Positions 12,064 through 57,952 of a DNA stretch of 64,000 nt are shown piece after piece. How positions within the stretch are numbered: the first letter of the stretch is position 1; the number at the start of each line of letters is the position of its first letter. The notes under the pieces were generated by a model that was not told the origin of the DNA, searched no databases, and saw nothing but the letters and a program-made list of their open reading frames with translations. The stretch is from Minisyncoccia bacterium (GTDB lineage Bacteria > Patescibacteriota > Minisyncoccia > Phycocordibacterales > UBA9973), in assembly GCA_049287305.1 (NCBI GenBank), contig JBAQFO010000009.1:26259-90258 (forward strand), in the 5' to 3' direction. The position numbers and the translations under genes are program-made.

Positions 12064-13131
12064 TTAGTTCTGAGTAACGGAGTAATCCAAACTCTGAGTG
12101 ATTGTCATTGTCTCGTAACTATAATGATAGTTGGTGGCAAATACGGCGCCGATAACGGCCAGGACCGCGAGGCCGTTAGTGAGAATGTCTCGGTGGTGAT
12201 TTTTATTTTTTATCACGATATAAAGCGTCAGCGCCATTGCAATAATTGAGAAAATCACGGACATAATTATGTTGGTTGTATTTCTTGGAGAAGCCAGAAG
12301 TTTCTGCCATAACGCTGGTGTTGCCATGGGTTCTGTTTTTAAATCGGTTTTTATAGCCTCAGTGATGTTGTTAGAAGGCTCTGGTTTTGCCTCAGGGTCA
12401 GCTGGCACAAACTCAGCCCCGAGAACAGAGAGATCATTATTTTTTGCCTGCCCTGCTCTCTCCGCTACGGCAACCTGATTTTTTGATTGTTCAGCTTTTG
12501 GACTTATAGCCTGCGAAGAAGACACGGTGAAAGCCGGGTTCGCGTATACTTGCGCCACAAAAATAGTTTTTCTGCCTTTGTAAATACCCTTCGCTATGCC
12601 TGTGCCCATTTCCGTATAATTCCCCTTCACTATGTTTGCTTTGTGAGTAGGACTGTTGAGCCAAGCTTGTGTCACGTCTTTAGAATCGTGAAAGTTCACT
12701 GCCAAATTTTCTCCCGCATATTGATATTTATATCCGGCAAGCTCAAGCCAATACCATGGAGTTATGCCTTCGGGGCTAGTGTGAGCAAAGTATCCCTTGG
12801 TAGCCATATCTTCCGCTTTCATTTCCGCCGCCTTGTTTAAAATAGGGCTCACTATGAGCTGTCCCAGATTCTGAGAAGCGCGTTCTTCATTCGTAAGTTC
12901 CCCCAAAACAGCCGGCAAAACAGCAGCCATATTCCCAACGAGATTTAGATTTCCGACAACGGGAATAAGAAAAGAAAAAATTTCAAAAAATAAGATGAGA
13001 ACAATAAGATTGCGAGTGCTGTAGTCACGCAGAATATGCGGACGGTGTTCGTTGCCCGCATGCGGAATAAAATGTTTTTTAAGCCAAGAAAACATCTGAA
13101 TATTATAACAACGAATGAGGAGAAAAGTCAA
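12064..13131 (-). CDS. CAP/SCP (PR-1-like, YkwD-like) domain protein with TM segments
   Basis: GYFAHTSPEG ... AGENLAVNF ... AWLNSPTHKANI motifs. Hydrophobic segments at the N- and C-termini. The true start may be internal. Confidence 0.55.
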   Translation of the reverse strand: MTFLLIRCYNIQMFSWLKKHFIPHAGNEHRPHILRDYSTRNLIVLILFFEIFSFLIPVVGNLNLVGNMAAVLPAVLGELTNEERASQNLGQLIVSPILNKAAEMKAEDMATKGYFAHTSPEGITPWYWLELAGYKYQYAGENLAVNFHDSKDVTQAWLNSPTHKANIVKGNYTEMGTGIAKGIYKGRKTIFVAQVYANPAFTVSSSQAISPKAEQSKNQVAVAERAGQAKNNDLSVLGAEFVPADPEAKPEPSNNITEAIKTDLKTEPMATPALWQKLLASPRNTTNIIMSVIFSIIAMALTLYIVIKNKNHHRDILTNGLAVLAVIGAVFATNYHYSYETMTITQSLDYSVTQN

Positions 13132-24969: not shown

Positions 24970-25004
24970 AAGTAAAACACCCTTTTAGGGTGCTGAACTT
25001 TTTG
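24970..25004. repeat. 35-bp terminator-like element, copy 2 (terminator of tRNA-Asn on the minus strand)
   Basis: Identical to 23861-23895. On the minus strand the hairpin is followed by a T-run, directly downstream of the tRNA 3' end. Confidence 0.7.
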
Positions 25005-25054
25005 TAAAAAACATTGCTCCGGGGGTAGGGATCGAACCTACGACCAATCGCTTA

Positions 25055-25608
25055 CATGTTGTCTCCTATTACTAGAAGCATGGACTATATCATATCCATA
25101 TTCTGAAAATTCAGAACTTAGGACCAAGGCGCTTCGTCCGACCTTGCGTCGGACTACTCCACTAAGTGGATAGTCTCTACACCTTTTCTGACTTTGCGTC
25201 AGAACTTGGCTCGGGATTACCCCGCAAAAGGGTTTCCCCGAATTCACCTCGTTTTTCAATCTACTTTTCAATAGAAAGCTGCGTAATGCCTGCCTCGACT
25301 TCTCGATGGCAATTTGCACAAAGTAGAACACACTTATCAAGTTCAAGTCGTGTTTTTTCCCACGATCTTGTGTAGCCTTTATCTCCAATGCCGAAACTTT
25401 TTTCTGACCTATTGATATGGTGAAGCTCTAAAGCTCCAGCGCATTTCTTATAGCCACAAATTTGGCAGTGTCCACCTTTGTATTCGATAGACATGGATTT
25501 AACTTTTTTTCTTCTTTTGGCTACGGCTTTGATAAGCGCCTCTCTTCTGTCGACATACTTTCTGGTGTCTGGCATATATAACCATTATACCAAAAAAGTC
25601 TTTGTCTC
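25055..25608 (-). mobile_element. Group I intron (IC3-like, Azoarcus/cyanobacterial tRNA-intron type) carrying an HNH ORF
   Basis: The intron core contains AAGGTGTAGAGACTA (R/P7 element, near-identical to the Azoarcus tRNA-Ile intron) and GATATAGTCC (S/P7' element). The last intron nucleotide is G and the last exon-1 nucleotide is U. Confidence 0.65.
25261..25575 (-). CDS. HNH homing endonuclease encoded within the tRNA intron
   Basis: CQICGYKKC ... LELHHINRSEKSF ... CVLLCANCHRE: an HNH motif with Zn-binding cysteines. The ORF starts 30 nt inside the intron. Confidence 0.7.
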   Translation of the reverse strand: MPDTRKYVDRREALIKAVAKRRKKVKSMSIEYKGGHCQICGYKKCAGALELHHINRSEKSFGIGDKGYTRSWEKTRLELDKCVLLCANCHREVEAGITQLSIEK

Positions 25609-25710
25609 ACAGGCGACCGCTCTACCGCTGAGCTACCCCGGAGCGATGTTTTTTACTCTTTAAATTTTATAAAGAACTTTTGATATCTTAGCAGAAAAGA
25701 TAGAAAAAAC

Positions 25711-25752: not shown

Positions 25753-26715
25753 TTACCTGCTCCCACTGCCGCTATTTGACCCACTGTCGTCGTCATTATC
25801 ATCACTATCGTCATCACTACTATCGTCCTTTCCGGAATCATCGTCTGCATCCGAGTCATCGCCAGAATCATCTTCTATATCGCTATCATCATCCGAATCC
25901 TCAACCTTGTCTTCATCGTCCTCTGTTTCTATTTTGAGAACAGCCCCTATCTTTTCTGCTGTTAAAGTTGGAAACTTAACTAAAATAGCGGCAATTATTC
26001 CTTCTTTGGTATTGGCAGAAGTGGCGAAAGTTGTTTTTTCGTCATTTACCTCCACCTCAACAATAGTTTTGTCAGATAGGATTTTTGCTTCGGCTTCTTC
26101 AATTCCCTTTTTTAAACTATCCCAAGAACCACTATCTTCTGTTTTTGTTTTTATTTCAATTTCTCCGTTTTTTACCTCAATGCGCATTCGTCCTTCTTCC
26201 GTTCGGACTTCAATTTTAGATTTATTTTCTCCCTGGTCCTTTATTTCTATTTTTTCGGGACCTTGGTCAAATTTTATCCTAAGCTTATCGTCAGAAACTT
26301 CCACCCTGGCGTCCGCGGGCAACTTATCCAAATACGCGCTAAGTTCTGCGGCCAATGTTGCTAAGCGAGCGTCTTCTACTTCGCCTCCTTCATCAATATC
26401 AGTGAGGAGGTCAAGGGCGTATTCTATGCCCATTTTTACATCTTCATCCTTCGCATCTCCGTCGTCCAAAACTTCATCTGTTTCGTCGGAAACATCATTG
26501 TCTTCTACCTCAAGTTCTTTTACCTCTTTTAGCCTCTCTTCCGCAAAACGGACGCGAAGCTCATTCTTATTTTCTTCGCTGGTAAATGACAATCTTGCGT
26601 TTTCTACCGCCCTATCAAGACCAAACAAAGCATCTCCGGGACGCGCATCATCAGACACAACGGCAGTGCCCCCTACTCCGAGAGCCAATGCCAAAACAAT
26701 AAATAGTCCTATCAT
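25753..26715 (-). CDS. Membrane-anchored acidic (D/E-rich) repeat protein
   Basis: The start is taken at MIGLFIVLALALG (TM anchor). Structured KIEIK/RIEVK repeats are followed by a poly-acidic tail. The antisense (+) ORF is a Ser-rich mirror and is judged spurious. Confidence 0.45.
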   Translation of the reverse strand: MIGLFIVLALALGVGGTAVVSDDARPGDALFGLDRAVENARLSFTSEENKNELRVRFAEERLKEVKELEVEDNDVSDETDEVLDDGDAKDEDVKMGIEYALDLLTDIDEGGEVEDARLATLAAELSAYLDKLPADARVEVSDDKLRIKFDQGPEKIEIKDQGENKSKIEVRTEEGRMRIEVKNGEIEIKTKTEDSGSWDSLKKGIEEAEAKILSDKTIVEVEVNDEKTTFATSANTKEGIIAAILVKFPTLTAEKIGAVLKIETEDDEDKVEDSDDDSDIEDDSGDDSDADDDSGKDDSSDDDSDDNDDDSGSNSGSGSR

Positions 26716-27164
26716 ATATATTTTTATTAAATTAATTTCTAATCCTCTAATTATACCACCATCAACTGACACAACAAGCCCTTAGTGGCACACACCACGC
26801 CTCAACAGAAAAGAAGCCGGGAGGATGAATTAAATCACCGCCGACTTCTTATCCGCGAGATGCGGAAATTCTACTACCATTGCCTCTTCCGCCACTTTGA
26901 AAGGCGCGCAGACGAGGCTTCCATTGATGATGTCGTAGTCGTGGATGATGAATCCTTTCGGTTCCGTCTCCACGACCGACTCAAACTTGGGGAAAATACT
27001 CTCACCGCAATGTATGCACTTCATACGAGTCTCCTCATCCCTGGAACATCTTTTGAATAATTATATCTTATTTGCCTCTAATGCCCTAGCCAAAGAGACG
27101 AGACTTCCCCGGACACAAGGTATATAATTAGTTCATTACAATATTTAATGTTTTCTAATTTATT

Positions 27165-27582: not shown

Positions 27583-28617
27583 CTAGATTATTTTGAAGAA
27601 AAGACGAATTACGGGAAACAAAATGTAATCCCAAATTTGCGGCTTGAAACTCAGAGGGTCAAATAAAGTTGATTCATTTTTCCATCCTTCAATTATTCCT
27701 CGGAGCTTATCCACTGCTTTTTTTTCTTTAAAGAGTATCCCCACTTCGGAATTTAATTCAAAAGACAGAAAATCTAAATTATGGGACCCTAAAATTGCTT
27801 CCTCTTGGTCCACAATCATTGCTTTAGCATGGTTCATGCGGGGCAAGAGAAAAAAGTTAACGCCTAGCTTGGAAAGCTTAAACATAAAAAAGTAAGCCAC
27901 CCGGTCAGGAATGAAATGATTGCCTCTTTGAGGCACTAGCACTTCCACTCGGACCCCGCGGAGAACGGCCTGGTGGAGAATAGCGATAAACCAGTGTTTC
28001 GGCATAAAATATGGAGTAATTAAAACGATGCTGCTCTTGGCTTCATTGACTGTTTTTTTGTAAATTTTTTTCAGAGAATACCGCTGGCTTATCGGAAAAT
28101 TTTCTATCAGCCAAGTGCGTGTCTTGTTCAAAAATATTCTTCTATTCTGCGCAAGGATAAGCGGGTCTTTGCCGCCACAGTCAGCATATACTTTGGCGAA
28201 AGATGAAATAATAGCTAGCACGAGTTTTTTCCCTTTTACCTCCACTGCCAGGTCGTCCCACATACGAGCTACTTGGTGAAAATTAACTCCGCCGATAAAA
28301 GCCAGGCTTTCGTCCACTACAAGGATTTTTCTGTGAATCCTGTGCCTGAATCTGCTGAAGAAATGCACCTCAGTCCCGCTCTGCCGGAGGTCGGCAACGG
28401 CTTCCTTGCTAAGGAGAGAACTGCCGAAAGAGTCCAGCACTACCCTAACCCTTAGCCCTTTTTCCGATTTCTTTTTTAACAAGGTAATAAAATCAAAACG
28501 GCGCATGTCGTCATTGAAAATATACATCTCTAAATATACGGATTCTTTCGCGTCTTTTATTGCTCCATACATAGCTTGCCACGTGGAGTAAGAACTGGCA
28601 AAAAATTTATAACGCAT
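27583..28617 (-). CDS. Phospholipase D / cardiolipin synthase-family protein
   Basis: Two HKD motifs: HRKILVVDESLAFIGGVNF and HAKAMIVDQEEAILGSHNLD. Confidence 0.75.
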   Translation of the reverse strand: MRYKFFASSYSTWQAMYGAIKDAKESVYLEMYIFNDDMRRFDFITLLKKKSEKGLRVRVVLDSFGSSLLSKEAVADLRQSGTEVHFFSRFRHRIHRKILVVDESLAFIGGVNFHQVARMWDDLAVEVKGKKLVLAIISSFAKVYADCGGKDPLILAQNRRIFLNKTRTWLIENFPISQRYSLKKIYKKTVNEAKSSIVLITPYFMPKHWFIAILHQAVLRGVRVEVLVPQRGNHFIPDRVAYFFMFKLSKLGVNFFLLPRMNHAKAMIVDQEEAILGSHNLDFLSFELNSEVGILFKEKKAVDKLRGIIEGWKNESTLFDPLSFKPQIWDYILFPVIRLFFKII

Positions 28618-33009: not shown

Positions 33010-34782
33010 ATGCAAAAAGCAGTCATTTATTGCCGAGTATCCTCTATTAAGCAAAGCACAGAAGGACACGGACTAGATTCGCAGGAGCATCGTTGTAGAG
33101 AGTATGCAAAACAAAAGGGCTATGAAGTTGTAAAAGTCTTCAGAGATAGTTTCACAGGCGGTGGAGACTTTCTAAATAGACCAGCAATGTCTTCTTTGCT
33201 TGGTTATCTCGATAAAGAACCTGCAACGAACTTTGTAGTTGTCTTTGACGATTTAAAAAGACTTGCTCGCGATACTGTTTTTCATCTCAAATTAAGAAGG
33301 GAATTTACTGCTAGAGGAGCAAAAGTAGAATGCTTAAACTTTACTTTTGAAGAAACTCCCGAAGGACAATTTATTGAAACCATTTTGGCTTCACAGGGAG
33401 AGCTAGAAAGAAAACAAAATCAAAGACAAGTAATTCAGAAAATGAAAGCCCGTCTTGAAAATGGATATTGGACTTTAGTTGCTCCTGTCGGGTATAGAAT
33501 GATAAAAAATCCTATTCATGGAAAAATACTAACAAGAGTTGAACCAGAAGCTAGTATTGCAAAGGAAGCCCTTGAAGGATTTGCCAGTGGAAGATTTGAA
33601 AATCAGGTTGAAGTCCAAAGTTTCTTACAATCTAAAAAGTTTCGTGGGATTACAAAATACAATTTAAGTTTGGTTAAAAGATTACTTACAAGGTCAGTAT
33701 ATGCTGGCTTTGTAGAATATGAAAAGTGGAATGTAAGTAGAAGGGTTGGTCATCATGAGCCGATAATTAGTTCTGATACATTTCAACAGATTCAGGATAA
33801 ACTAAATGGAAAAATAAAAATCTACTCAAGAAAAGACAATAACAAGGAATTTCCTTTGAGGGGTTTTATTTTATGTTTAGACTGTTGTAAACCCATGACA
33901 GCAAGTTGGACTACTGGCAGAAGTGCTAAACATCCTTATTATCATTGTAAAACAAGAGGATGTCAGCTTAAGGGTAAAAGTATAAAGAGAAAGGAAATGG
34001 AGGATAGATTTGAGGATATACTACGCTCCATAAAGCCTAAAGCGAAGACCTTGAATCTTACAAAAGAAATTCTACTTGATATTTGGAATAAGAGACTTGC
34101 CGATGTAGATAACCTTAAAAAGAATCATGAAAATAATTTAGATGAAGTTCGTGCAAAGATAAGAATGTTTTTAGACAGATTATCTCAAACTAAAAATCCT
34201 AGCTTGATAAAAACTTACGAAAAGGAAATTGAAAAACTCACAAATGAGGAGCAAGTTTTAGAAAATCAGAGCCAAGTCATGCGAGGTACCAAGCCAGATT
34301 TTGGAACCGCCCTTGATATTACTTTTGATTTTCTAAAAAATCCTTATGCTTATTGGGCAAAAGATGATTTGAAGTCAAAGCATTTAGTTTTGAAATTGGT
34401 TTTTTCCGATAGATTAACTTATGAAAGAGGAGTAGGGTTTCGAACCGCTAATCTAGCTTTACCATTAAGGGTATTTGAGTTAAACGAACTAGGTGATTCT
34501 TCTGATGTGGTGTCATTATATCATTTGCTCGAACTTTTTTTGAGCGAGAATGAATCGTCCCGCCACTGCCTCGCAAAGCCTCGGCAACCCCGAAAGAAAA
34601 ACACTCCTTGCATTTCTGATTTGGCGGGGGTGAAATTTCTTTTGGAAAAGGAAAGGGTGTTTTTCTTTCGGGGTTCTGCCTTCCAAGTATTCAGGCAGGT
34701 GGCGGAACAATGCGGACGAAGTTTTGCAAAAACTATTTTTTGGGGAAAGGATTTTGCAAAACTTCGGCTCATTTGTTTTTGA
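33010..34782 (+). CDS. Large serine recombinase (resolvase catalytic domain + recombinase domain + zinc ribbon)
   Basis: AVIYCRVSSIKQ catalytic-serine motif, a VFDDLKRLARD motif and a CLDCCKPMT...YYHCKTRGC zinc ribbon. The last ~90 codons read into inverted repeat IR1-L, so the true stop is uncertain. Confidence 0.8.
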   Translation: MQKAVIYCRVSSIKQSTEGHGLDSQEHRCREYAKQKGYEVVKVFRDSFTGGGDFLNRPAMSSLLGYLDKEPATNFVVVFDDLKRLARDTVFHLKLRREFTARGAKVECLNFTFEETPEGQFIETILASQGELERKQNQRQVIQKMKARLENGYWTLVAPVGYRMIKNPIHGKILTRVEPEASIAKEALEGFASGRFENQVEVQSFLQSKKFRGITKYNLSLVKRLLTRSVYAGFVEYEKWNVSRRVGHHEPIISSDTFQQIQDKLNGKIKIYSRKDNNKEFPLRGFILCLDCCKPMTASWTTGRSAKHPYYHCKTRGCQLKGKSIKRKEMEDRFEDILRSIKPKAKTLNLTKEILLDIWNKRLADVDNLKKNHENNLDEVRAKIRMFLDRLSQTKNPSLIKTYEKEIEKLTNEEQVLENQSQVMRGTKPDFGTALDITFDFLKNPYAYWAKDDLKSKHLVLKLVFSDRLTYERGVGFRTANLALPLRVFELNELGDSSDVVSLYHLLELFLSENESSRHCLAKPRQPRKKNTPCISDLAGVKFLLEKERVFFFRGSAFQVFRQVAEQCGRSFAKTIFWGKDFAKLRLICF

Positions 34783-34872
34783 ATTCGGAAGTCGCAAATG
34801 GAAAAGGAGGGGTTTGGGGAGGAATTTTCCATTTGCTCCTCTTTTTGTTTTGGCGAAATTCGGGGCGGACAA
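34507..34872. repeat. IR1-L: 366-bp inverted repeat, ~96% identical to 38536-38901
   Basis: A direct comparison of this segment with the reverse complement of 38536-38901 shows about 15 mismatches over 366 bp. It also contains an internal 20-bp palindrome pair (ccccgaaagaaaaacac / gtgtttttctttcgggg). Confidence 0.85.
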
Positions 34873-34899
34873 TGCGAAAAAAGTACAAAAGAAACAATT

Positions 34900-35052
34900 T
34901 TACTTTTTTCGCAAATCTGCCCAAAGTGCCATTGCCACTAAGACCAAGAATATTACCACTTCCAACCAGTTTTGTTTCTGGACAGCTTCAACAACAGCTG
35001 AGCCAAAAAGAATTACTATTACCGCTAAACTTGTGAATTTTAGGTCTTTCAT
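34900..35052 (-). CDS. Small single-TM protein
   Basis: About 50 aa from the Met of MKDLKFTSLAVIVILFG. It is the last gene of the 7-gene minus-strand operon. Confidence 0.3.
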   Translation of the reverse strand: MKDLKFTSLAVIVILFGSAVVEAVQKQNWLEVVIFLVLVAMALWADLRKK

Positions 35053-35057
35053 GTGAT

Positions 35058-35233
35058 TATTGATTGCGTTTCTGCAATGCCAGCATGCCATAAGCTATGA
35101 TTGCTCCGGAAACTGTAGCCGTGAGAGTGATTTGCGGAAGATTAATCGGCATCTGTAGAATCCAGTATCCTAGCAAACCGACTGCGGATATAATCACAAA
35201 CTCAAGAACAAAGTACTGTAAGAATTTTTTCAT
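35058..35233 (-). CDS. Small two-TM protein (58 aa; not in the ORF track)
   Basis: Translation is MKKFLQYFVLEFVIISAVGLLGYWILQMPINLPQITLTATVSGAIIAYGMLALQKRNQ. It is hydrophobic and co-directional with the operon. Confidence 0.3.
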
Positions 35234-35270
35234 AAGATGATTATAACTAATTTATTTTTTGGCGACGACA

Positions 35271-35846
35271 TTAAACTAAATGATACCACTTTCGCTCTGA
35301 TATTTTTCTTAATTTATCTACTGCTGGTGTATTGTACAGGTATTCAGTACTTTTCGAAATATCCGTAAGAATCCCTACTGTAATTTGTTCGTTTGGATTT
35401 GGAACTTGCACAAGCTGTGCAAGTTGTTGTTGAGTTAATCCTTGTGGTAAATTCTGTGCCGTTGCTGTTGAGATAGGCACCGCCTCAAATCTTTGATTTA
35501 ATTTTTGACTAGAACGTTCAGCTATTAAAAAATCGATATACGTTGCTTGCGAGTAAAATCTGCTAATCATGTCAATTTCAGTTTCTTTCAAATCCTTGAT
35601 AAAAAGATGTATGTTGTCGTTCCAACTGTTGGTTGGCAGTAATTTTGATGACAAGGAGTACCCGCGTGTACCATGCTCCGAATTTCTGATCTGTTGCTCC
35701 GCGTAGCGGATTTCTTGAAGTATTAAACTAGCCGCATCTCTCCTTTTGTCCACTCTTGCTTTTATATAAAGGTAAATAGCTAAAAAGCCAACAACAAATG
35801 TTACCACCCCGATATTGTCATTTAAGAATTGAAAAATAATCATCAT
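35271..35846 (-). CDS. Hypothetical protein with an N-terminal TM anchor
   Basis: 191 aa. Its start is 2 nt after the upstream gene, so it is probably translationally coupled. Confidence 0.4.
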   Translation of the reverse strand: MMIIFQFLNDNIGVVTFVVGFLAIYLYIKARVDKRRDAASLILQEIRYAEQQIRNSEHGTRGYSLSSKLLPTNSWNDNIHLFIKDLKETEIDMISRFYSQATYIDFLIAERSSQKLNQRFEAVPISTATAQNLPQGLTQQQLAQLVQVPNPNEQITVGILTDISKSTEYLYNTPAVDKLRKISERKWYHLV

Positions 35847-35848
35847 AA

Positions 35849-36775
35849 TTACTCTGTTCTTAACTCCTTTTGCCTAATCCACTTCGGACCATCAGGAGTT
35901 AGTACTAAAACATCAATTGGGCCACCTACGCCCGGCATGTCACCCGGGTCAGCTTGAATGCCGTCTGAAAAACGTTGAATCGCTGATGTTGTCTGTATCG
36001 CAAGCACAGAAAAATCGATTGCGTCTTGGAGGGGCATTGAGCCCCAGTTGATAGCATATTCAAGACTATTCAATTGTTTTTCAATTTCGGCTTGACCTTT
36101 TGATTTGATAGCTTCGTTTACAAATGGTGTATTAAAAATTCGCGGGTCCCATCCTTTGACAATTCGAGACACAACGTCAGTCTGCCCAATCCAATTGGCG
36201 CCGTACTCCATTCCACGTTGGTTGCTGTCGCGCCTTTTTACATTCTCGCCAGGGACATAAACATTATAAACTTCGTGCGAGCCGTCGATGTTATAGCCAG
36301 CAACAAACAAAACTAGCCCGTCTATACCTCCAGCACCATCCTTTATATTTCCCGCTTTGTCCTTGATTTTGAACTTGACATTGTATTGTTCCTTTTTGAT
36401 CTCCACAATTTCAAACCCTTGCTTTGTAAAATTATCTTTTATTTGATCCGGCAACTTATCTAGTTGTTCTTGCCAATTTAATTTTTTATCAAATAGAAAA
36501 TGTAATTTGTCCGCAACTTCTTTGACTGAAAGTTTATCAACCTCCACTTCTCTCTTAAACTGCTCAATAAACTTGCTGATATTTTTTGGTATTCCATTCT
36601 CTTGCAAAAATGCAAGTCCGGTAGTTGCAACGCCGATTCGATTATTAATTAAAAATAGTTTTGATGCAGAATCAGAGCCAATTCTAGAAACACCTTTTTG
36701 GTTGCGATAAGATTGACGGCTATCTGCCGCTAATATCATGCCCTCTGGAGTTGTTGTATTTATTGCTAAGCTCAT
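35849..36775 (-). CDS. Proteasome beta-subunit-like Ntn hydrolase (T1 family; HslV/Anbu-like), orphan
   Basis: MSLAIN|TTTPEGMILAADSRQS aligns with the Thermoplasma beta propeptide and TTTVGI...ATERR region (Thr1, Asp17). SKLFLINNRIGVATTGLA aligns with KKLFQIDTYTGMTIAGL (Lys33). GGIDGLVLFVAGYNIDG...VYVPG aligns with LLVGGID...SIDAAGG. The C-terminal AIDFSVLAIQTTSA...GGPIDVLVLTPDG aligns with VDLVIRAISAA...SGGMIDVAVITRKDG. Confidence 0.55.
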   Translation of the reverse strand: MSLAINTTTPEGMILAADSRQSYRNQKGVSRIGSDSASKLFLINNRIGVATTGLAFLQENGIPKNISKFIEQFKREVEVDKLSVKEVADKLHFLFDKKLNWQEQLDKLPDQIKDNFTKQGFEIVEIKKEQYNVKFKIKDKAGNIKDGAGGIDGLVLFVAGYNIDGSHEVYNVYVPGENVKRRDSNQRGMEYGANWIGQTDVVSRIVKGWDPRIFNTPFVNEAIKSKGQAEIEKQLNSLEYAINWGSMPLQDAIDFSVLAIQTTSAIQRFSDGIQADPGDMPGVGGPIDVLVLTPDGPKWIRQKELRTE

Positions 36776-36785
36776 AATTTAAAAA

Positions 36786-37385
36786 TTATTTTTCCCACAC
36801 GATATGCCCATTTATACCATGTTTTTCGTAAGTTTCCAAGACATCAGCACAAAATTTTATCAACTCTTCGTTCTTTTCACTTTTGGCTAATTCATAAAGA
36901 CGGATAAACATTTTCTTTCCCGTTTCGGTTTGCTTCAAATTCTTTTTGATAAAATTATGTTGTGCGCATAATGTCTGGCCGTTCTCAATCGTAGCTTCGC
37001 CGCCAAAATCTTTTGGCTTTATATGGTCAATGTGTAATTCAACGCCGTCTTTTTTGCCTCTACCGCAAATGACGCATTTGTATCCGTCTCTTTTAAGAAT
37101 TGCTTCTTTTTGTGAGGCTGTAAAATCCTCCAACTCTCTTTTATACGCTTTAGCCGGGTCATATTTATAAACTCCTTTAGAAATTTTGATCAAAAAGCCG
37201 CTTTGAGCTAGGTGGCGAATGGCTCTATCAGGGTCACGAAAAACATTTCCGGTCCTTTTCGTGTAAGTTGATACTACCCAATCAACAACTTCCGGATGTT
37301 TTATATCTCGGTTTGGATTTTTCTTAAAGAACTCAACGATGAGGTCTTTTTGAACATTATTATTTTTCTTGATGTCTTTTTTCAT
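36786..37385 (-). CDS. HNH nuclease (candidate restriction endonuclease of the R-M unit)
   Basis: CVICGRGKKDGVELHIDHIKPKDFGG...NGQTLCAQHN HNH motif with an N-terminal winged-helix-like region. It lies directly downstream of the methyltransferase. Confidence 0.6.
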   Translation of the reverse strand: MKKDIKKNNNVQKDLIVEFFKKNPNRDIKHPEVVDWVVSTYTKRTGNVFRDPDRAIRHLAQSGFLIKISKGVYKYDPAKAYKRELEDFTASQKEAILKRDGYKCVICGRGKKDGVELHIDHIKPKDFGGEATIENGQTLCAQHNFIKKNLKQTETGKKMFIRLYELAKSEKNEELIKFCADVLETYEKHGINGHIVWEK

Positions 37386-37390
37386 ATTTT

Positions 37391-38218
37391 TTACATTAAA
37401 CTTGATTGATTTACTTTTGCTTCATTGCGTAAGCGGTCTATCGCTATGTCGCAATACTTTTCATCAATATCAATTCCGATTCCTTTTCTGCCATGCAAAT
37501 AAGAGGCAATCAGCGTTGAACCGCTACCCAAAAATGGATCTAAAACAGTATCGCCAACAAAACTAAATAATTTTATACATCGTCTCGGTAATTCAATGGG
37601 AAATGGCGCAGGATGTCCGCCCGCACCTTTTTTACTTTGGCCGTTGAATGTCCAAACTCCATTTGTCCAATCCATGAATTCTTTTTTTGTAATATCATTT
37701 ACCCTACTTGCACCAGTTTTCTTCCAACTGTCTTTATACAAAACTAAAATCAATTCAACCGGAGCGATAACATACGGGGCGGAGGCGGACATAAACGAAC
37801 CCCAAGCGGTACGACGAGATATATTTCCCTCGTTCCAAATAATTGTTGAGTGATATTTCCAGCCAATGTCTTTTGCAATTTTTGTAATATCCGCACCAAC
37901 TGATTTTTGCCCACCTTTATTTTTATCAAGTGGAATGTTAAGCAAAAATCGCCCTTCATTTTTTGATAATTCAAAACATTTTTTGATCCATTTTTGAGTA
38001 AATTCCAAATAATCTTCGTACGTTAAATCGTCAGCGTGAGAATTGTAATGAATATCAACATTGTAAGGTGGCGAGGTAACAATCAAATCAATTGAATTAT
38101 TTGGAATTGCAGAAATTTTCAAAATGTCATCTTTGTATATCAAAATATTCTCCGCTTCAAAATGTGGAGCGTTAGTCTTTTTTTCTTTTGTATTTTTTGC
38201 GGTTATGGTATTTAACAT
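37391..38218 (-). CDS. DNA methyltransferase (beta-class N4-cytosine/N6-adenine)
   Basis: Motif IV SPPY (LIVTSPPYNV) precedes motif I (VLDPFLGSGST), which is the beta-class order. Confidence 0.8.
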   Translation of the reverse strand: MLNTITAKNTKEKKTNAPHFEAENILIYKDDILKISAIPNNSIDLIVTSPPYNVDIHYNSHADDLTYEDYLEFTQKWIKKCFELSKNEGRFLLNIPLDKNKGGQKSVGADITKIAKDIGWKYHSTIIWNEGNISRRTAWGSFMSASAPYVIAPVELILVLYKDSWKKTGASRVNDITKKEFMDWTNGVWTFNGQSKKGAGGHPAPFPIELPRRCIKLFSFVGDTVLDPFLGSGSTLIASYLHGRKGIGIDIDEKYCDIAIDRLRNEAKVNQSSLM

Positions 38219-38535: not shown

Positions 38536-38901
38536 TTGTCCGCCCCGAATTCCCCCAAAACAAAAAGAGGAGCAAATGGAAAATTCCTCCCCAAACCCCT
38601 CCTTTTCCATTTGCGACATCCGAATTCAAAAAAGATTAGCCGAGTGTTTTGCCAAATCCTTTCCCCAAAAAATAGTTTTGCCAAAACTTCGTCCGCATTG
38701 TTCCGCCACCTGCCTGAATACTTGGAAGGCAGAACCCCGAAAGAAAAACACCCTTTCCTTTTCCAAAAGAAATTTCACCCCCGCCAAATCAAGAAAGCAA
38801 GGAGTGTTTTTCTTTCGGGGTTGCCGAGGCTCTGCGAGGCAGTGGCGGGACGATTCATTCTCGCTCAAAAAAAGTTCGAGCAAATGATATAATGACACCA
38901 C
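38536..38901. repeat. IR1-R: 366-bp inverted repeat partner of 34507-34872
   Basis: See IR1-L. It abuts IR2-L, so the junction reads ...gacacca|ccaaacg. Confidence 0.85.
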
Positions 38902-39029
38902 CAAACGAAACTTGTTCGGAATTAAGAAAGCGGAGCGATTTTGCGGTAGCCAAAATCGCGCTATCATTTTTTTCAAAACCCTTTCCGCCTACGGCGGAAG
39001 CCGTGAATTCCCAAAGCTCCCCCCAATTG
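38898..39029. repeat. IR2-L: ~132-bp inverted repeat partner of 40441-40575
   Basis: The reverse complement of 40441-40575 matches with only a few mismatches. The outer end begins ccacca. Confidence 0.8.
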
Positions 39030-39034
39030 AAATC

Positions 39035-40639
39035 ATGAAAGACCTCAAACCAAAATATTTTCTCTACGCTCGTAAGAGTACAGAAGACGATGACCACCAA
39101 ATAATGTCTATTGAGGCACAGCTTTTTGAATTACATGAATACGCGCGTAGAGAAAATCTTGAAATTCTTGAGGAATTTCAAGAGTCGAAAAGCGCAAAGA
39201 AACCGGGTCGTGAACTATTTAACGAAATGATGGCCCGCATTGAGAAAATGGACGGCGTAGGTATCCTCGCGTGGCATCCTGACCGTCTTGCTCGCAATAG
39301 TGTTGACGGCGGGCGCATCATTTACGCAGTAGACACGACCAAAATAGTTTCTTTGCGTTTTCCGACATTTTGGTTTGAGCCAACTCCGCAAGGGAAATTT
39401 ATGTTGCAGGTGGCGTTCGGACAGAGTAAATATTATTCCGACAATCTTGTTGAGAATATTACTCGTGGTATCCGCCAAAAAGTCCGTCGAGGCGAGTGGT
39501 TGGTGCGCGCTCCCTTTGGCTATGTGAATAATCCGAAAACGAGAAATATTGAACCTCACCCGACTAAATCTCGCATTGTAGTAAAAGCGTTTGAAGAATA
39601 CGCCAAAGGGACGCACACCCTCGGCACTATCGCCGACTTTTTGGCGGATCACGGCGTGAGTACGAAGGGAACGCCACCTGCCAAAGCTTCCGTCGCTCGT
39701 ATGCTCTCCAATCGTGTCTATCTCGGTTTTACTTTTCACAAAGGCGAGTATTACGACGGAAGCTTTGCGCCAATTATTTCTCCGACACTGTTTGAAGCAG
39801 TCCAAAAAATGCTTGCGAAAAAATCTCGTCCTCGCGTGCAAAAAGTGCCAAACCATTTTCCCTTTGCACAATTTGCTCGGTGCGGAGAGTGCGGAAGTAT
39901 GATTACGGCTCAATATGCGACAAATCGTTTTGGCACAAAATATACTTACTATCGCTGTACCAAAAAGAAAGGTGTTTGTCGTCAGCCGTATCTATCTTCT
40001 TCCGCACTCATTTCGCAAGCAAAAAATCTGCTTCAATCAGTGTCGCTTCCTCTTTCAGAAATTGAGAACATGGAAAAACAAATTGACCTATGGGACAAAG
40101 AATCAATTTCAGAAAGAGGAAGTGCTGCCCAAAATCTTAAAACCAAACTTTCCGAAACGAAGGAGAAGCTGGACAAGCTCGTTTCCATTTATCTTGACGG
40201 CGATATTGAACGCGAGATTTACTTACAGCGAAAAGACCTTCTCCTTCGTCAGAAAGCAAAGTTTGAGGAAAGTTTTAAAGATTTTGGACAACAGAGAAAA
40301 AATTGGGTCGAACCCTTGCGGAGTTTCGTTTTGTCTTTGAGAGAAGCCGTTATTTTGGAAAAAAGCGAAAACTATTTCGCATGGAAAGAGTTTTTCCAAA
40401 AAATCGGCTCGAACCCTATTCTCAAAGACAAAACGCTTTCATGCAATTGGGGGGAGCTTTGGGAATTCACGGCTTCCGCCGTAGGCGGAAAGGGTTTTGA
40501 AAAAATTGACAGCGCGATTTTGGCTCCCGCAAAATCGCTCCGTTTTCTTAATTCCGACAATGTTTCGTTTGGTGGACCGTACAGGACTCGAACCTGCCAC
40601 CCCCTCATTGCAAATGAGGTGCTCTACCAGATGAGCTAA
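39035..40639 (+). CDS. Large serine recombinase (second copy, divergent from the first)
   Basis: YARKSTEDD catalytic-serine region, a WHPDRLARN motif, and a zinc ribbon CGECGS...YYRCTKKKGVC followed by coiled-coil-like sequence. The ORF reads through IR2-R and into the tRNA-Ala complement, so the real stop is uncertain. The ATG at 39035 is chosen as the start. Confidence 0.75.
   Translation: MKDLKPKYFLYARKSTEDDDHQIMSIEAQLFELHEYARRENLEILEEFQESKSAKKPGRELFNEMMARIEKMDGVGILAWHPDRLARNSVDGGRIIYAVDTTKIVSLRFPTFWFEPTPQGKFMLQVAFGQSKYYSDNLVENITRGIRQKVRRGEWLVRAPFGYVNNPKTRNIEPHPTKSRIVVKAFEEYAKGTHTLGTIADFLADHGVSTKGTPPAKASVARMLSNRVYLGFTFHKGEYYDGSFAPIISPTLFEAVQKMLAKKSRPRVQKVPNHFPFAQFARCGECGSMITAQYATNRFGTKYTYYRCTKKKGVCRQPYLSSSALISQAKNLLQSVSLPLSEIENMEKQIDLWDKESISERGSAAQNLKTKLSETKEKLDKLVSIYLDGDIEREIYLQRKDLLLRQKAKFEESFKDFGQQRKNWVEPLRSFVLSLREAVILEKSENYFAWKEFFQKIGSNPILKDKTLSCNWGELWEFTASAVGGKGFEKIDSAILAPAKSLRFLNSDNVSFGGPYRTRTCHPLIANEVLYQMS
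40441..40575. repeat. IR2-R: inverted repeat whose outer 6 bp are the CCACCA 3' terminus of tRNA-Ala
   Basis: Seen in sequence: ...gtttcgtttggtgg|accgtacagg, where the reverse complement of tggtgg is the discriminator A plus CCA of the tRNA. Confidence 0.8.
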
Positions 40640-40645
40640 CGGCCC
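40570..40645 (-). tRNA. tRNA-Ala(UGC), CCA encoded
   Basis: GGGCCGT-TA-GCTC-ATCTGGTA-GAGC-A-CCTCA-TTTGCAA-TGAGG-GGGTG-GCAGG-TTCGAGT-CCTGT-ACGGTCC-A-CCA. The G3:U70 Ala identity pair is present. Confidence 0.85.
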
Positions 40646-42015: not shown

Positions 42016-42360
42016 GTTTCGCCCTGTGTTTTATAAGCCGAATTCTGTGACCTTGACCGAAGCCAAGGTGATAGCGATTTGTCTAGGCCTGCGATTACTC
42101 GCAAGCTCAAGCGATTCTCCTCGGCCTAAGCCGAGGCACGATCTTGCACAGAGGTAAGGATTTAGCCGTTTCACCCTGATGTTTCCATCAGATTACCCCT
42201 AACGGGGCCCTAGCCTTTCGGCGTCGGCGTCTCTGCTCGCACCTATGTATTGCTACACACGGGGGTTACCCGCTACCATTCCCACCCTTTGCAGGGCTCG
42301 CTGTGTTCGGACTTTCCTCACTCCGACGTAAATCGGAGCGTAGCTATCAAAATACAGGAC
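42016..42360 (-). ncRNA. rnpB: RNase P RNA (bacterial type A, compact)
   Basis: On the minus strand: GGAAAGTCCG (P4 region), GGGTAACCCCCG (P10/11-like), ACAGAATTCGGCTTATAAAAC (P4 3' strand through the P1 region). The P1 helix pairs CCUGUAUUUU with AAAACACAGG. No ORF spans the region. A terminator hairpin lies at 41988-42010. Confidence 0.8.
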
Positions 42361-57876: not shown

Positions 57877-57952
57877 GCCGCCTTAGCTCAGTTGGTAGAG
57901 CAACGCTTTTGTAAAGCGAAGGTCCTCGGTTCGAATCCGAGAGGCGGCTCCA
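57877..57952 (+). tRNA. tRNA-Thr(UGU), CCA encoded
   Basis: GCCGCCT-TA-GCTC-AGTTGGTA-GAGC-A-ACGCT-TTTGTAA-AGCGA-AGGTC-CTCGG-TTCGAAT-CCGAG-AGGCGGC-T-CCA. There is one 27:43 mismatch, and the anticodon assignment depends on loop register. Confidence 0.75.

Follow-up and report, generated by a model that had tools for sequence, protein, structure and literature searches.

We analysed a 64,000-nucleotide (nt) stretch of contig JBAQFO010000009.1 from a Minisyncoccia bacterium (GCA_049287305.1, positions 26,259 to 90,258), referred to as the window below, and found on its minus strand a transfer RNA (tRNA) gene, tRNA-Asn(GUU), that is very probably split between anticodon-loop positions 35 and 36 by a group I intron, mobile and self-splicing, that harbours an HNH homing-nuclease gene. 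The same central claim had been made in a first-pass annotation of this DNA, and it was borne out by a covariance model, covariation, protein families and the splicing assays of homologues (Nakagawa et al., mSystems 2026, PMC13011429; preprint July 2025, 10.1101/2025.07.03.662931). As checks, that annotation had proposed a tRNA search allowing introns, a search with the Rfam group I model, a P1–P9 fold and a look for intron-less alleles; each of these gave a supporting result. The exons, the fold, the family of the open reading frame (ORF), purifying selection and the empty sites were established in the present analysis, and the self-splicing comes from homologues.

The split tRNA-Asn(GUU) gene

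The gene and its insert occupy the following positions.

25609..25642, minus strand: tRNA-Asn(GUU) exon 1, TCCGGGGTAGCTCAGCGGTAGAGCGGTCGCCTGT (ARAGORN on spliced and unspliced sequence, sequence read)
25055..25608, minus strand: group I intron, 554 nt, with G+1 at 25608 and omega-G at 25055 (Rfam, covariation, minimum free energy fold)
25017..25054, minus strand: tRNA-Asn exon 2, TAAGCGATTGGTCGTAGGTTCGATCCCTACCCCCGGAG (ARAGORN, sequence read)

Exon 1 comprises the 5' strand of the acceptor stem, the D arm, the 5' strand of the anticodon stem and loop nucleotides C32, U33, G34 and U35. Exon 2 continues with U36, A37 and A38, the 3' strand of the anticodon stem, the variable loop, the T arm, the 3' strand of the acceptor stem and G73. 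The 554-nt insert separates them between positions 35 and 36; it follows U35 (25609), which is the −1 U at the 5' splice site, and ends with G25055. Joining the exons yields a tRNA of 72 nt. Its acceptor stem has 7 bp (U1-A72) and its anticodon stem 5 bp, the D and T arms are normal, the anticodon loop reads CUGUUAA and the discriminator is G73. The CCA end is absent from the gene, the bases after exon 2 being CAA.

ARAGORN returned tRNA-Asn(gtt), given as 73 bases, with a normal cloverleaf for the in-silico spliced sequence, and Asn(gtt) i(35,554) for the unspliced DNA when introns were allowed. With default settings it missed the gene and called only a tRNA-Ala and a tRNA-Thr in the window. 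The first-pass annotation had placed the two tRNA halves at these minus-strand positions, about 554 nt apart, had joined them into the Asn loop CUGUUAA and had described an intervening sequence that follows an exon U and ends in G; ARAGORN and the bases U35 and G25055 confirmed all of this to the base.

Fold of the intron

The Rfam model RF00028 (Intron_gpI) matched positions 25062-25321 on the minus strand with 54.8 bits, above its gathering threshold of 50 (E = 3.5e-11 for the whole window), and this was the sole intron match in the window. Since the 5' splice site lies 320 nt upstream, the Rfam alignment misses the true P1, and the structure was therefore built by comparison. A hand-drawn P2–P9 structure, with P7 as a pseudoknot, was tested on an alignment of the ribozyme from 66 homologues (alignment A1). 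In this fold with its P3/P7 pseudoknot, 93.2% of the cells pair, against 35-45% in controls with partners slid by 1-3 columns. Compensatory changes were present in 52 of the 69 pairs, and none of 500 shuffles matched the observed values. Covariation was found in P2, P4, P5, P6, P6a, P8, P8a, P9 and P9.0, and all helices were 86-100% paired. A plain minimum free energy fold of 25055-25285 (minus strand) independently recovered ten of the comparative helices (z = -5.1). The elements of the fold are listed below, all on the minus strand.

25260..25275, minus strand: P2 hairpin (25275-25270/25265-25260) with a GAAA loop, containing the ORF stop codon
25251-25245, minus strand: P3 5' strand, pairing with 25131-25125
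25181..25251, minus strand: P4–P6 domain with the P3 5' strand (P4 25241-36/25216-11; P5 25233-30/25222-19; P6 25210-08/25183-81)
25204-198/25192-186, minus strand: P6a with a GCAA-type loop
25185-25171, minus strand: AAGGTGTAGAGACTA, the J6/7-P7 15-mer, containing one P7 strand
25171..25177, minus strand: P7 5' strand of the guanosine-binding helix (G25177, bulged A25176, GACUA 25175-25171), partner 25087-25082
25136..25170, minus strand: P7.1 and P7.2 hairpins (25170-66/25162-58; 25154-48/25142-36), between P7 and P3'
25082..25131, minus strand: P3 3' strand (25131-25125), P8 (25124-21/25097-94), P8a (25116-11/25106-01), J8/7 and P7 3' strand (25087-25082)
25091-25082, minus strand: GATATAGTCC, containing the other P7 strand
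25055..25081, minus strand: P9.0 (25081-80/25057-56), P9 (25078-73/25068-63, GUAA loop) and omega-G 25055

P2 was paired in 98.5% of cells, with compensatory changes in all six of its six pairs. The helices of the P3 5' strand and P4–P6 region were 88-97% paired with compensatory changes, and the minimum free energy fold reproduces them. P7 is essentially invariant (99.7% paired, 65 sequences) and crosses P3 as a pseudoknot; two conserved motifs that the first-pass annotation had assigned to P7 proved to be AAGGTGTAGAGACTA and GATATAGTCC, which between them contain both strands. P7.1 was 96.5% paired with compensatory changes in four of five pairs, and P7.2 87.7% paired with changes in seven of seven; both hairpins are missing in five of the 66 homologues. 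Pairing reached 92% in P3, 95% in P8 and 86% in P8a, again with compensatory changes.

The intron's 3' end is fixed by P9.0, in which the two nucleotides after P7 pair with the two nucleotides before the terminal G in 100% of sequences. The pair counts (AU:36/GC:29 and UA:45/CG:13/UG:7) reflect switches among A-U/U-A, G-C/U-A and A-U/C-G, and this covariation places the 3' splice site at G25055. P9 itself was about 91% paired. The closing pair of P5 (25233/25219; A1 columns 55/96) is G·U in 18 sequences, A-U in four and A/C in 44, which looks like an isosteric exchange of G·U and A+·C wobbles.

Guide sequence and P1

25279..25283, minus strand: internal guide sequence, P1 3' strand, C-GCAG (homologue conservation and covariation)

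The GCAG of the guide (25282-25279) pairs with exon nucleotides C32-U35, including a U35·G wobble, and the C before it pairs with intron G+1. GCAGC (25282-25278 in the window) was found in all 66 homologues, and the intron +1 base covaries with the base before the guide (G-C, A-U, C-G). Another candidate guide, GCAGGC at 25293-25288 inside the ORF, offers 6 bp with the exon; it was rejected, being present in only about eight of the 66 homologues.

Ribozyme subgroup

In the Michel-Westhof scheme, hairpins P7.1/P7.2 between P7 and P3' are the hallmark of subgroup IA, and IC3 introns are without extra helices in that interval. The window copy has two covarying hairpins there (25170-25136), and 61 of the 66 relatives likewise have P2 and covarying P7.1/P7.2. 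Judged by these helices, the ribozyme is IA-like and not IC3. The first-pass annotation had assigned it to IC3, the subgroup of the Azoarcus tRNA-Ile and cyanobacterial tRNA-Leu introns. The core likeness on which this rested stood: the 15-mer AAGGTGTAGAGACTA is common to the window intron and IC3 tRNA introns, among them an IC3 tRNA-Ile2 intron with AAGGTGTAGAGACT in Table S5 of PMC13011429. The subgroup did not stand, given P2, P7.1 and P7.2. With the published subgroup covariance models, too, 25 of 28 introns at 35/36 came out as IA and none of the tRNA introns of Patescibacteria as IC, and P7.1 is drawn in the tRNA-Asn intron of that study (PMC13011429). We regard an IC3 ribozyme in the window as improbable.

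Some relatives at the same site do look IC3-like. Five introns (L040, L044, L057, L060 and L069) have a different P3/P6 and no P7.1/P7.2 (A1 columns 260-340), and keep the same guide and P2; three of the five carry the same HNH ORF. On this comparison, two ribozyme cores, the second IC3-like, appear to be associated with the same site, guide, P2 and nuclease gene.

The HNH gene

25261..25575, minus strand: HNH endonuclease ORF of 104 amino acids in the P1 loop (L1), stop TAG at 25263-25261
25584..25592, minus strand: TGGTATAAT, an extended −10-like box at intron nt 17-25, 8 nt before the HNH ATG

The first-pass annotation was right about the ORF, its length of 104 amino acids and its HNH family; the start it had put 30 nt inside the intron lies 33 nt inside, the ATG beginning at intron nt 34. 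The last 22 nt of the ORF (25282-25261) double as the internal guide and P2, so that the C-terminal codons T-Q-L-S-I-E-K-stop are also ribozyme sequence and the stop codon lies in the P2 3' strand. Q99 and L100 are nearly invariant among homologues, as expected of a doubly constrained sequence.

HNH families of the PHROG database matched the protein (best PHROG 2255, E = 3e-28), and several close homologues have a precomputed PF01844 match. Residues C37, C40, H52, H53, C86, N88, C89 and H90 are invariant or nearly so and form the motif CxxC...HH...CxNCH, which supplies the His...Asn...His of a beta-beta-alpha-metal motif and two CxxC pairs. An AlphaFold2 model (pLDDT 83) has a 29-residue N-terminal helix followed by a beta-beta-alpha unit. 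A sequence search of the PDB gave marginal matches, the best to the HNH domain of a group II intron maturase (E = 0.014). The median pairwise ratio of nonsynonymous to synonymous substitution rates (dN/dS) was 0.10 over 228 pairs, indicating purifying selection, which argues that the HNH protein is functional.

No Shine-Dalgarno sequence was found before the HNH ATG. In 52 of the 63 introns with an ORF, a perfect TATAAT (mostly TGnTATAAT) ends 5-9 nt ahead of the ATG, while the bases flanking it vary freely. The pattern TGnTAnnnT-N5-8-start was counted 34 times in the window; seven of these instances fall exactly at the start of a long ORF, the HNH ORF among them. The −10 box suggests an internal promoter that would give a leaderless HNH mRNA. 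A leaderless start needs a 5'-terminal AUG, and the ORF would therefore not be translated from the pre-tRNA or from the excised intron. Most genes of the window are without a Shine-Dalgarno motif, and leaderless starts look like the normal gene architecture of this genome. The six other long ORFs that start 5-8 nt after TGnTAnnnT are at 13095, 22526, 28617, 29061, 33010 and 55776.

Relatives, intron-less alleles and signs of mobility

Homologues were collected by a protein search with the intron ORF and by a scan of one genome per species, from which the best 80 loci were fetched. The protein search yielded 2758 homologous clusters. A relative of the HNH gene was carried by 366 species-representative genomes, and the best 80 are nearly all metagenome-assembled genomes (MAGs) of Patescibacteria; the closest locus, in a 'Candidatus Nomurabacteria' MAG, encodes an HNH protein with 90% amino acid identity. 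A look-up of contigs encoding the exact HNH protein found no record. The host is a Patescibacteria-type (Paceibacteria/Nomurabacteria-like) bacterium. At 73 of the 80 loci a tRNA call split by an intron at the homologous site encloses the ORF; four loci were cut by contig ends and in three the ORF lies just outside the tRNA gene. ARAGORN gives Asn for most of the 73 and wrongly gives Thr or His for some. The boundaries, exon 1 ending in ...CTGT and exon 2 beginning with TAA..., were confirmed directly in 66 aligned loci. An arrangement repeated at 73 of 80 related loci is not due to chance.

Alleles without the intron are abundant. The uninterrupted junction TCGCCTGTTAAGCGATTGGTC was detected in at least 120 metagenome contigs, 116 of which were called as intron-less tRNA-Asn. 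No HNH relative was found beside these junctions within the DNA fetched per contig. One intron-less locus (L134) has directly upstream the same PLD-like gene as the intron-bearing loci L004, L009 and L019, and this gene is homologous to window positions 27583-28617; orthologous loci therefore exist in both intron states.

The nuclease gene also occurs outside the intron. In L040 (2995-3606) and L073 (3001-3679) a free-standing HNH gene lies just upstream of a tRNA-Asn whose intron is ORF-less, and in L069 (2211-2845) just downstream of one; the ORF-less introns measure 190, 269 and 186 nt. The C-terminus of the free-standing proteins no longer matches the guide. These forms could be an intermediate of invasion by the nuclease gene, or a case of 'collaborative homing'. 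Relatives with 42-62% identity were also found on contigs from the viral collection. Two IMG/VR contigs of 79 and 240 kb (L265 and L266; 2480-3261) carry, in a tRNA cluster, a tRNA-Asn(GUU) with a related 239-nt intron inserted one base later (36/37), with a guide GACA complementary to UGUU; about 200 nt downstream there is a related HNH gene with 47% identity.

Of the 80 genome contigs, about 23 stop within some 500 nt of the element, several exactly at the 3' end of the tRNA. Possible reasons are assembly breaks caused by presence/absence polymorphism of the intron, or a repeat shared between genomes.

Proposed mechanism

For the steps below, we infer the splicing of the window copy, the promoter, the nuclease activity and the nuclease target. 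In the precursor, exon nucleotides C32-U35 and intron G+1 would pair with the guide C-GCAG about 320 nt downstream and form P1, with the U35·G wobble at the splice site. The core (P3–P8 with the P3/P7 pseudoknot, P4–P6, P7.1/P7.2, P9.0 and P9) would bind a free guanosine in P7 and cleave after U35. The terminal G25055, placed by P9.0, would then replace the guanosine, and ligation of the exons would restore the CUGUUAA loop. The gene of the predicted zinc-binding, 104-residue HNH protein sits in the P1 loop, and the extended −10 promoter in the intron would provide it with a leaderless mRNA. Only transcripts without the 5' exon would be translated; ribosomes would thus be kept off splicing precursors and P1/P2 would not be unfolded. 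The HNH protein would nick or cut an intron-less tRNA-Asn gene (allele sequence ...GGTCGCCTGTTAAGCGATTGGTC..., junction GGTAGAGCGGTCGCCTGTTAAGCGATTGGTCGTAGG), and repair would copy the intron into it (homing).

A wider reading brings these elements together: the HNH gene would be an actively mobile homing gene and not a rare relic, its expression insulated from splicing by the leaderless mRNA, with free-standing and L1 stages, two ribozyme cores, possible exchange with phages and wide occurrence in Patescibacteria. We hold this reading tentatively, at somewhat short of an even bet. If it is true, the 366 species genomes would mean that tRNA introns bearing homing genes are frequent in Patescibacteria, which runs against the published conclusion of 'low prevalence, limited transfer'.

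Alternative explanations

The boundaries of the insert could in principle be drawn two bases upstream (33/34), which would make the product tRNA-Thr(UGU). Of the 80 related loci, about 17 are indeed given as Thr(tgt) i(33) by ARAGORN, tFind also calls some homologues in this way, and the same 2-nt Thr/Asn ambiguity is met in PMC13011429. The window gene, however, was called Asn by ARAGORN, and a shifted intron would end in A instead of G, while P9.0 covariation sets the 3' splice site directly after G25055 and the guide GCAG pairs with CUGU with its wobble at U35. A normal tRNA-Thr(UGU) is already present in the window (57877-57952), and sequenced spliced homologues gave the 35/36 junction (PMC13011429). 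We give the shifted sites next to no credence. It is also highly improbable that the gene is dead, with splicing disabled and an intact tRNA-Asn elsewhere doing the work. Our inspection covered 64 kb of the genome, and about 320 nt of coding sequence separate the P1 5' strand from the guide, both of which leave room for such a case. Yet every core element and helix is intact in the window copy, many intron-less alleles have identical exon sequences, the arrangement persists under purifying selection in 70 or more genomes, and in published complete genomes the intron-bearing gene is typically the only copy for its anticodon (PMC13011429).

The role of the HNH protein is less firmly fixed than the split gene. 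An intron that splices, and is fixed and vertically inherited, could carry a protein that is not, or not only, a homing nuclease, such as a maturase, a host-beneficial nuclease or a defence protein. The dN/dS of about 0.1 persists across species-level divergence, which is stronger selection than expected for a decaying homing gene; virtually all copies that have the ORF keep it intact, and a protein of 104 residues could hardly fit a separate DNA-recognition domain in addition to one long basic helix. Against this stand the abundant intron-less alleles with an identical target, one of them syntenic, the free-standing copies beside the same tRNA gene and the relatives on viral-collection contigs, which are typical of mobile nuclease genes. 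A need for a maturase is opposed by the ORF-less introns of the same family and by an assayed homologue that splices without protein (PMC13011429). These findings make a protein without a homing role unlikely. We know of no HNH maturase for a group I intron. Judging by the empty sites, the syntenic empty site and the free-standing and viral-collection relatives, all of them circumstantial, we infer that the HNH protein functions as a homing nuclease.

Several observations count against the mobile, nuclease-bearing group I intron preferred here, or against parts of it. Exon nucleotides contribute just 4 bp to P1, and the fixed anticodon loop leaves these no scope to covary; P10 is not convincing, the bases 5' of the guide having no consistent complementarity or covariation with exon 2. 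The Pfam HNH model scored 19.8 bits, under its gathering cut-off of 21.4. The top Foldseek neighbours of the model are all HNH nucleases (Cap5, Cas9 HNH, Gme HNH and T4 endonuclease VII), with weak E-values of 0.06 or higher. No promoter was detected in the region by a simple sigma-70 scan, a result explained by the −35 hexamer that the scan requires. Finally, strong purifying selection could also reflect a role of the protein other than homing.

Other features of the window

24976..24994, minus strand: terminator-like hairpin with a T run, directly downstream of the tRNA gene
25737-25707, minus strand: second terminator-like hairpin, terminating the upstream DUF5667 gene
25753-26772, minus strand: gene for a DUF5667 protein, upstream of the tRNA, with an Asp/Ser-rich acidic tail of about 60 residues
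30475-30587, plus strand: LOOT RNA, a structured RNA (Rfam RF03000), 69.5 bits against a gathering threshold of 46.4
38912-40639, plus strand: large serine recombinase gene (Resolvase, Recombinase and Zn-ribbon domains), within 38898-40645
40570-40645, minus strand: tRNA-Ala
42018-42359, minus strand: class A RNase P RNA, 105.4 against a gathering threshold of 100, with several shortened helices

Hairpins on both sides of the tRNA-Asn gene make it appear to form its own transcription unit. The serine recombinase gene, which abuts tRNA-Ala, is enclosed by a pair of inverted repeats of 132 nt (38898-39029 and 40444-40575) that are 95% complementary. This 1.6-kb recombinase segment is 96% identical to L012, a related genome, against only 66% for the PLD gene of that genome, a difference that suggests an element which has moved recently or can invert. 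The region 33010-38218 holds a second large serine recombinase (33010-34782), an HNH nuclease (36786-37385) and an N6/N4 DNA methylase (37391-38218); it is probably a mobile or restriction-modification island beside the tRNA-Ala locus.

Comparison with known systems

The window element is a further member of an already known class, and nothing essential differs. The expanded tRNA intron classes were first catalogued in the tFind preprint of K. P. Williams (2020, 10.1101/2020.01.27.920355), whose class 'Asn.4Ug' is cited by Nakagawa et al. (PMC13011429). The latter study analysed complete Patescibacteria genomes and reported 15 tRNA-Asn(GUU) genes with group I introns at 35/36, classed as IA. 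Such introns self-splice in vitro with precise, sequenced junctions, and an omega-G-to-C mutant blocks exon ligation. HNH nucleases were present in four tRNA-Asn introns (4 of 333), and mobility was judged to be limited (PMC13011429). These introns share with the window copy the host gene, the site, the splice rules, the GCAGC guide, P2 with a GNRA loop, and P7.1. A Paceibacteria intron in Table S3 of PMC13011429 also matches the window copy in its ORF, in its TGATATACT-N7-ATG start and in the overlap of ORF with guide and P2. The window HNH protein is identical to that of this intron (the GCA_023898525.1 copy) at 63 of 104 residues, and the window ribozyme to the intron assayed for self-splicing at 144 of 231 positions. 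The expectation of the first-pass annotation that the element might be a source of a new minimal ribozyme plus nuclease was not upheld, since this combination of intron and HNH gene is in PMC13011429.

Possibly new are the putative leaderless promoter, the overlap of ORF and ribozyme, the free-standing HNH genes, the copies on viral-collection contigs and the prevalence (366 genomes versus 4 of 333). PMC13011429 does not mention an internal promoter or leaderless expression, nor does it refer to free-standing nuclease genes or to viral copies. In a very small genome, an essential tRNA gene would depend on a ribozyme, and the intron explains why tRNA-Asn is reported missing by standard finders, which skews completeness estimates; the latter point is already published. 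The 104-residue nuclease would be among the smallest intron-borne HNH enzymes, with a defined, highly conserved target in the tRNA-Asn anticodon arm. Overlapping the ORF with the ribozyme and expressing it from a leaderless mRNA would be a compact way of reconciling translation with RNA folding. The natural variants, with over 2700 protein clusters and with forms that are ORF-less, ORF-bearing or free-standing, suit the study of how introns are invaded by nuclease genes.

Among more distant systems, the Synechocystis tRNA-fMet intron with I-Ssp6803I is likewise a bacterial tRNA group I intron with a homing endonuclease gene (cited in PMC13011429). It differs in its PD-(D/E)XK nuclease, its insertion at 33/34 and its cyanobacterial host. 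The IC3 introns of Azoarcus tRNA-Ile(CAU) and cyanobacterial tRNA-Leu(UAA) are also small anticodon-loop ribozymes with a short P1 formed from loop nucleotides, and the J6/7-P7 of the Azoarcus intron is presumably nearly identical to that of the window intron. They interrupt other tRNAs at other positions (33/34, 34/35), however, and have no P7.1/P7.2 and, in the classic examples, no nuclease gene.

Phage IA introns with P7.1/P7.2 and HNH nickases include those of Twort (orf142/I-TwoI) and SPO1 (I-HmuI), in which the nuclease genes lie in peripheral loops, and the T4 td intron has an internal promoter for its nuclease gene. The window intron shares with this group the IA peripheral helices, the HNH nuclease and a peripheral-loop gene with a putative promoter of its own. 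The phage introns interrupt phage protein genes and encode nucleases of about 170 residues or more, whereas here a cellular tRNA gene is interrupted and the nuclease has 104 residues. A free-standing homing endonuclease beside an ORF-less intron, termed 'collaborative homing', was reportedly described for cyanophage psbA by Zeng, Bonocora and Shub in 2009. The loci L040, L069 and L073, with an HNH gene just outside a tRNA-Asn that has an ORF-less intron, resemble that arrangement, whereas the window gene lies inside its intron.

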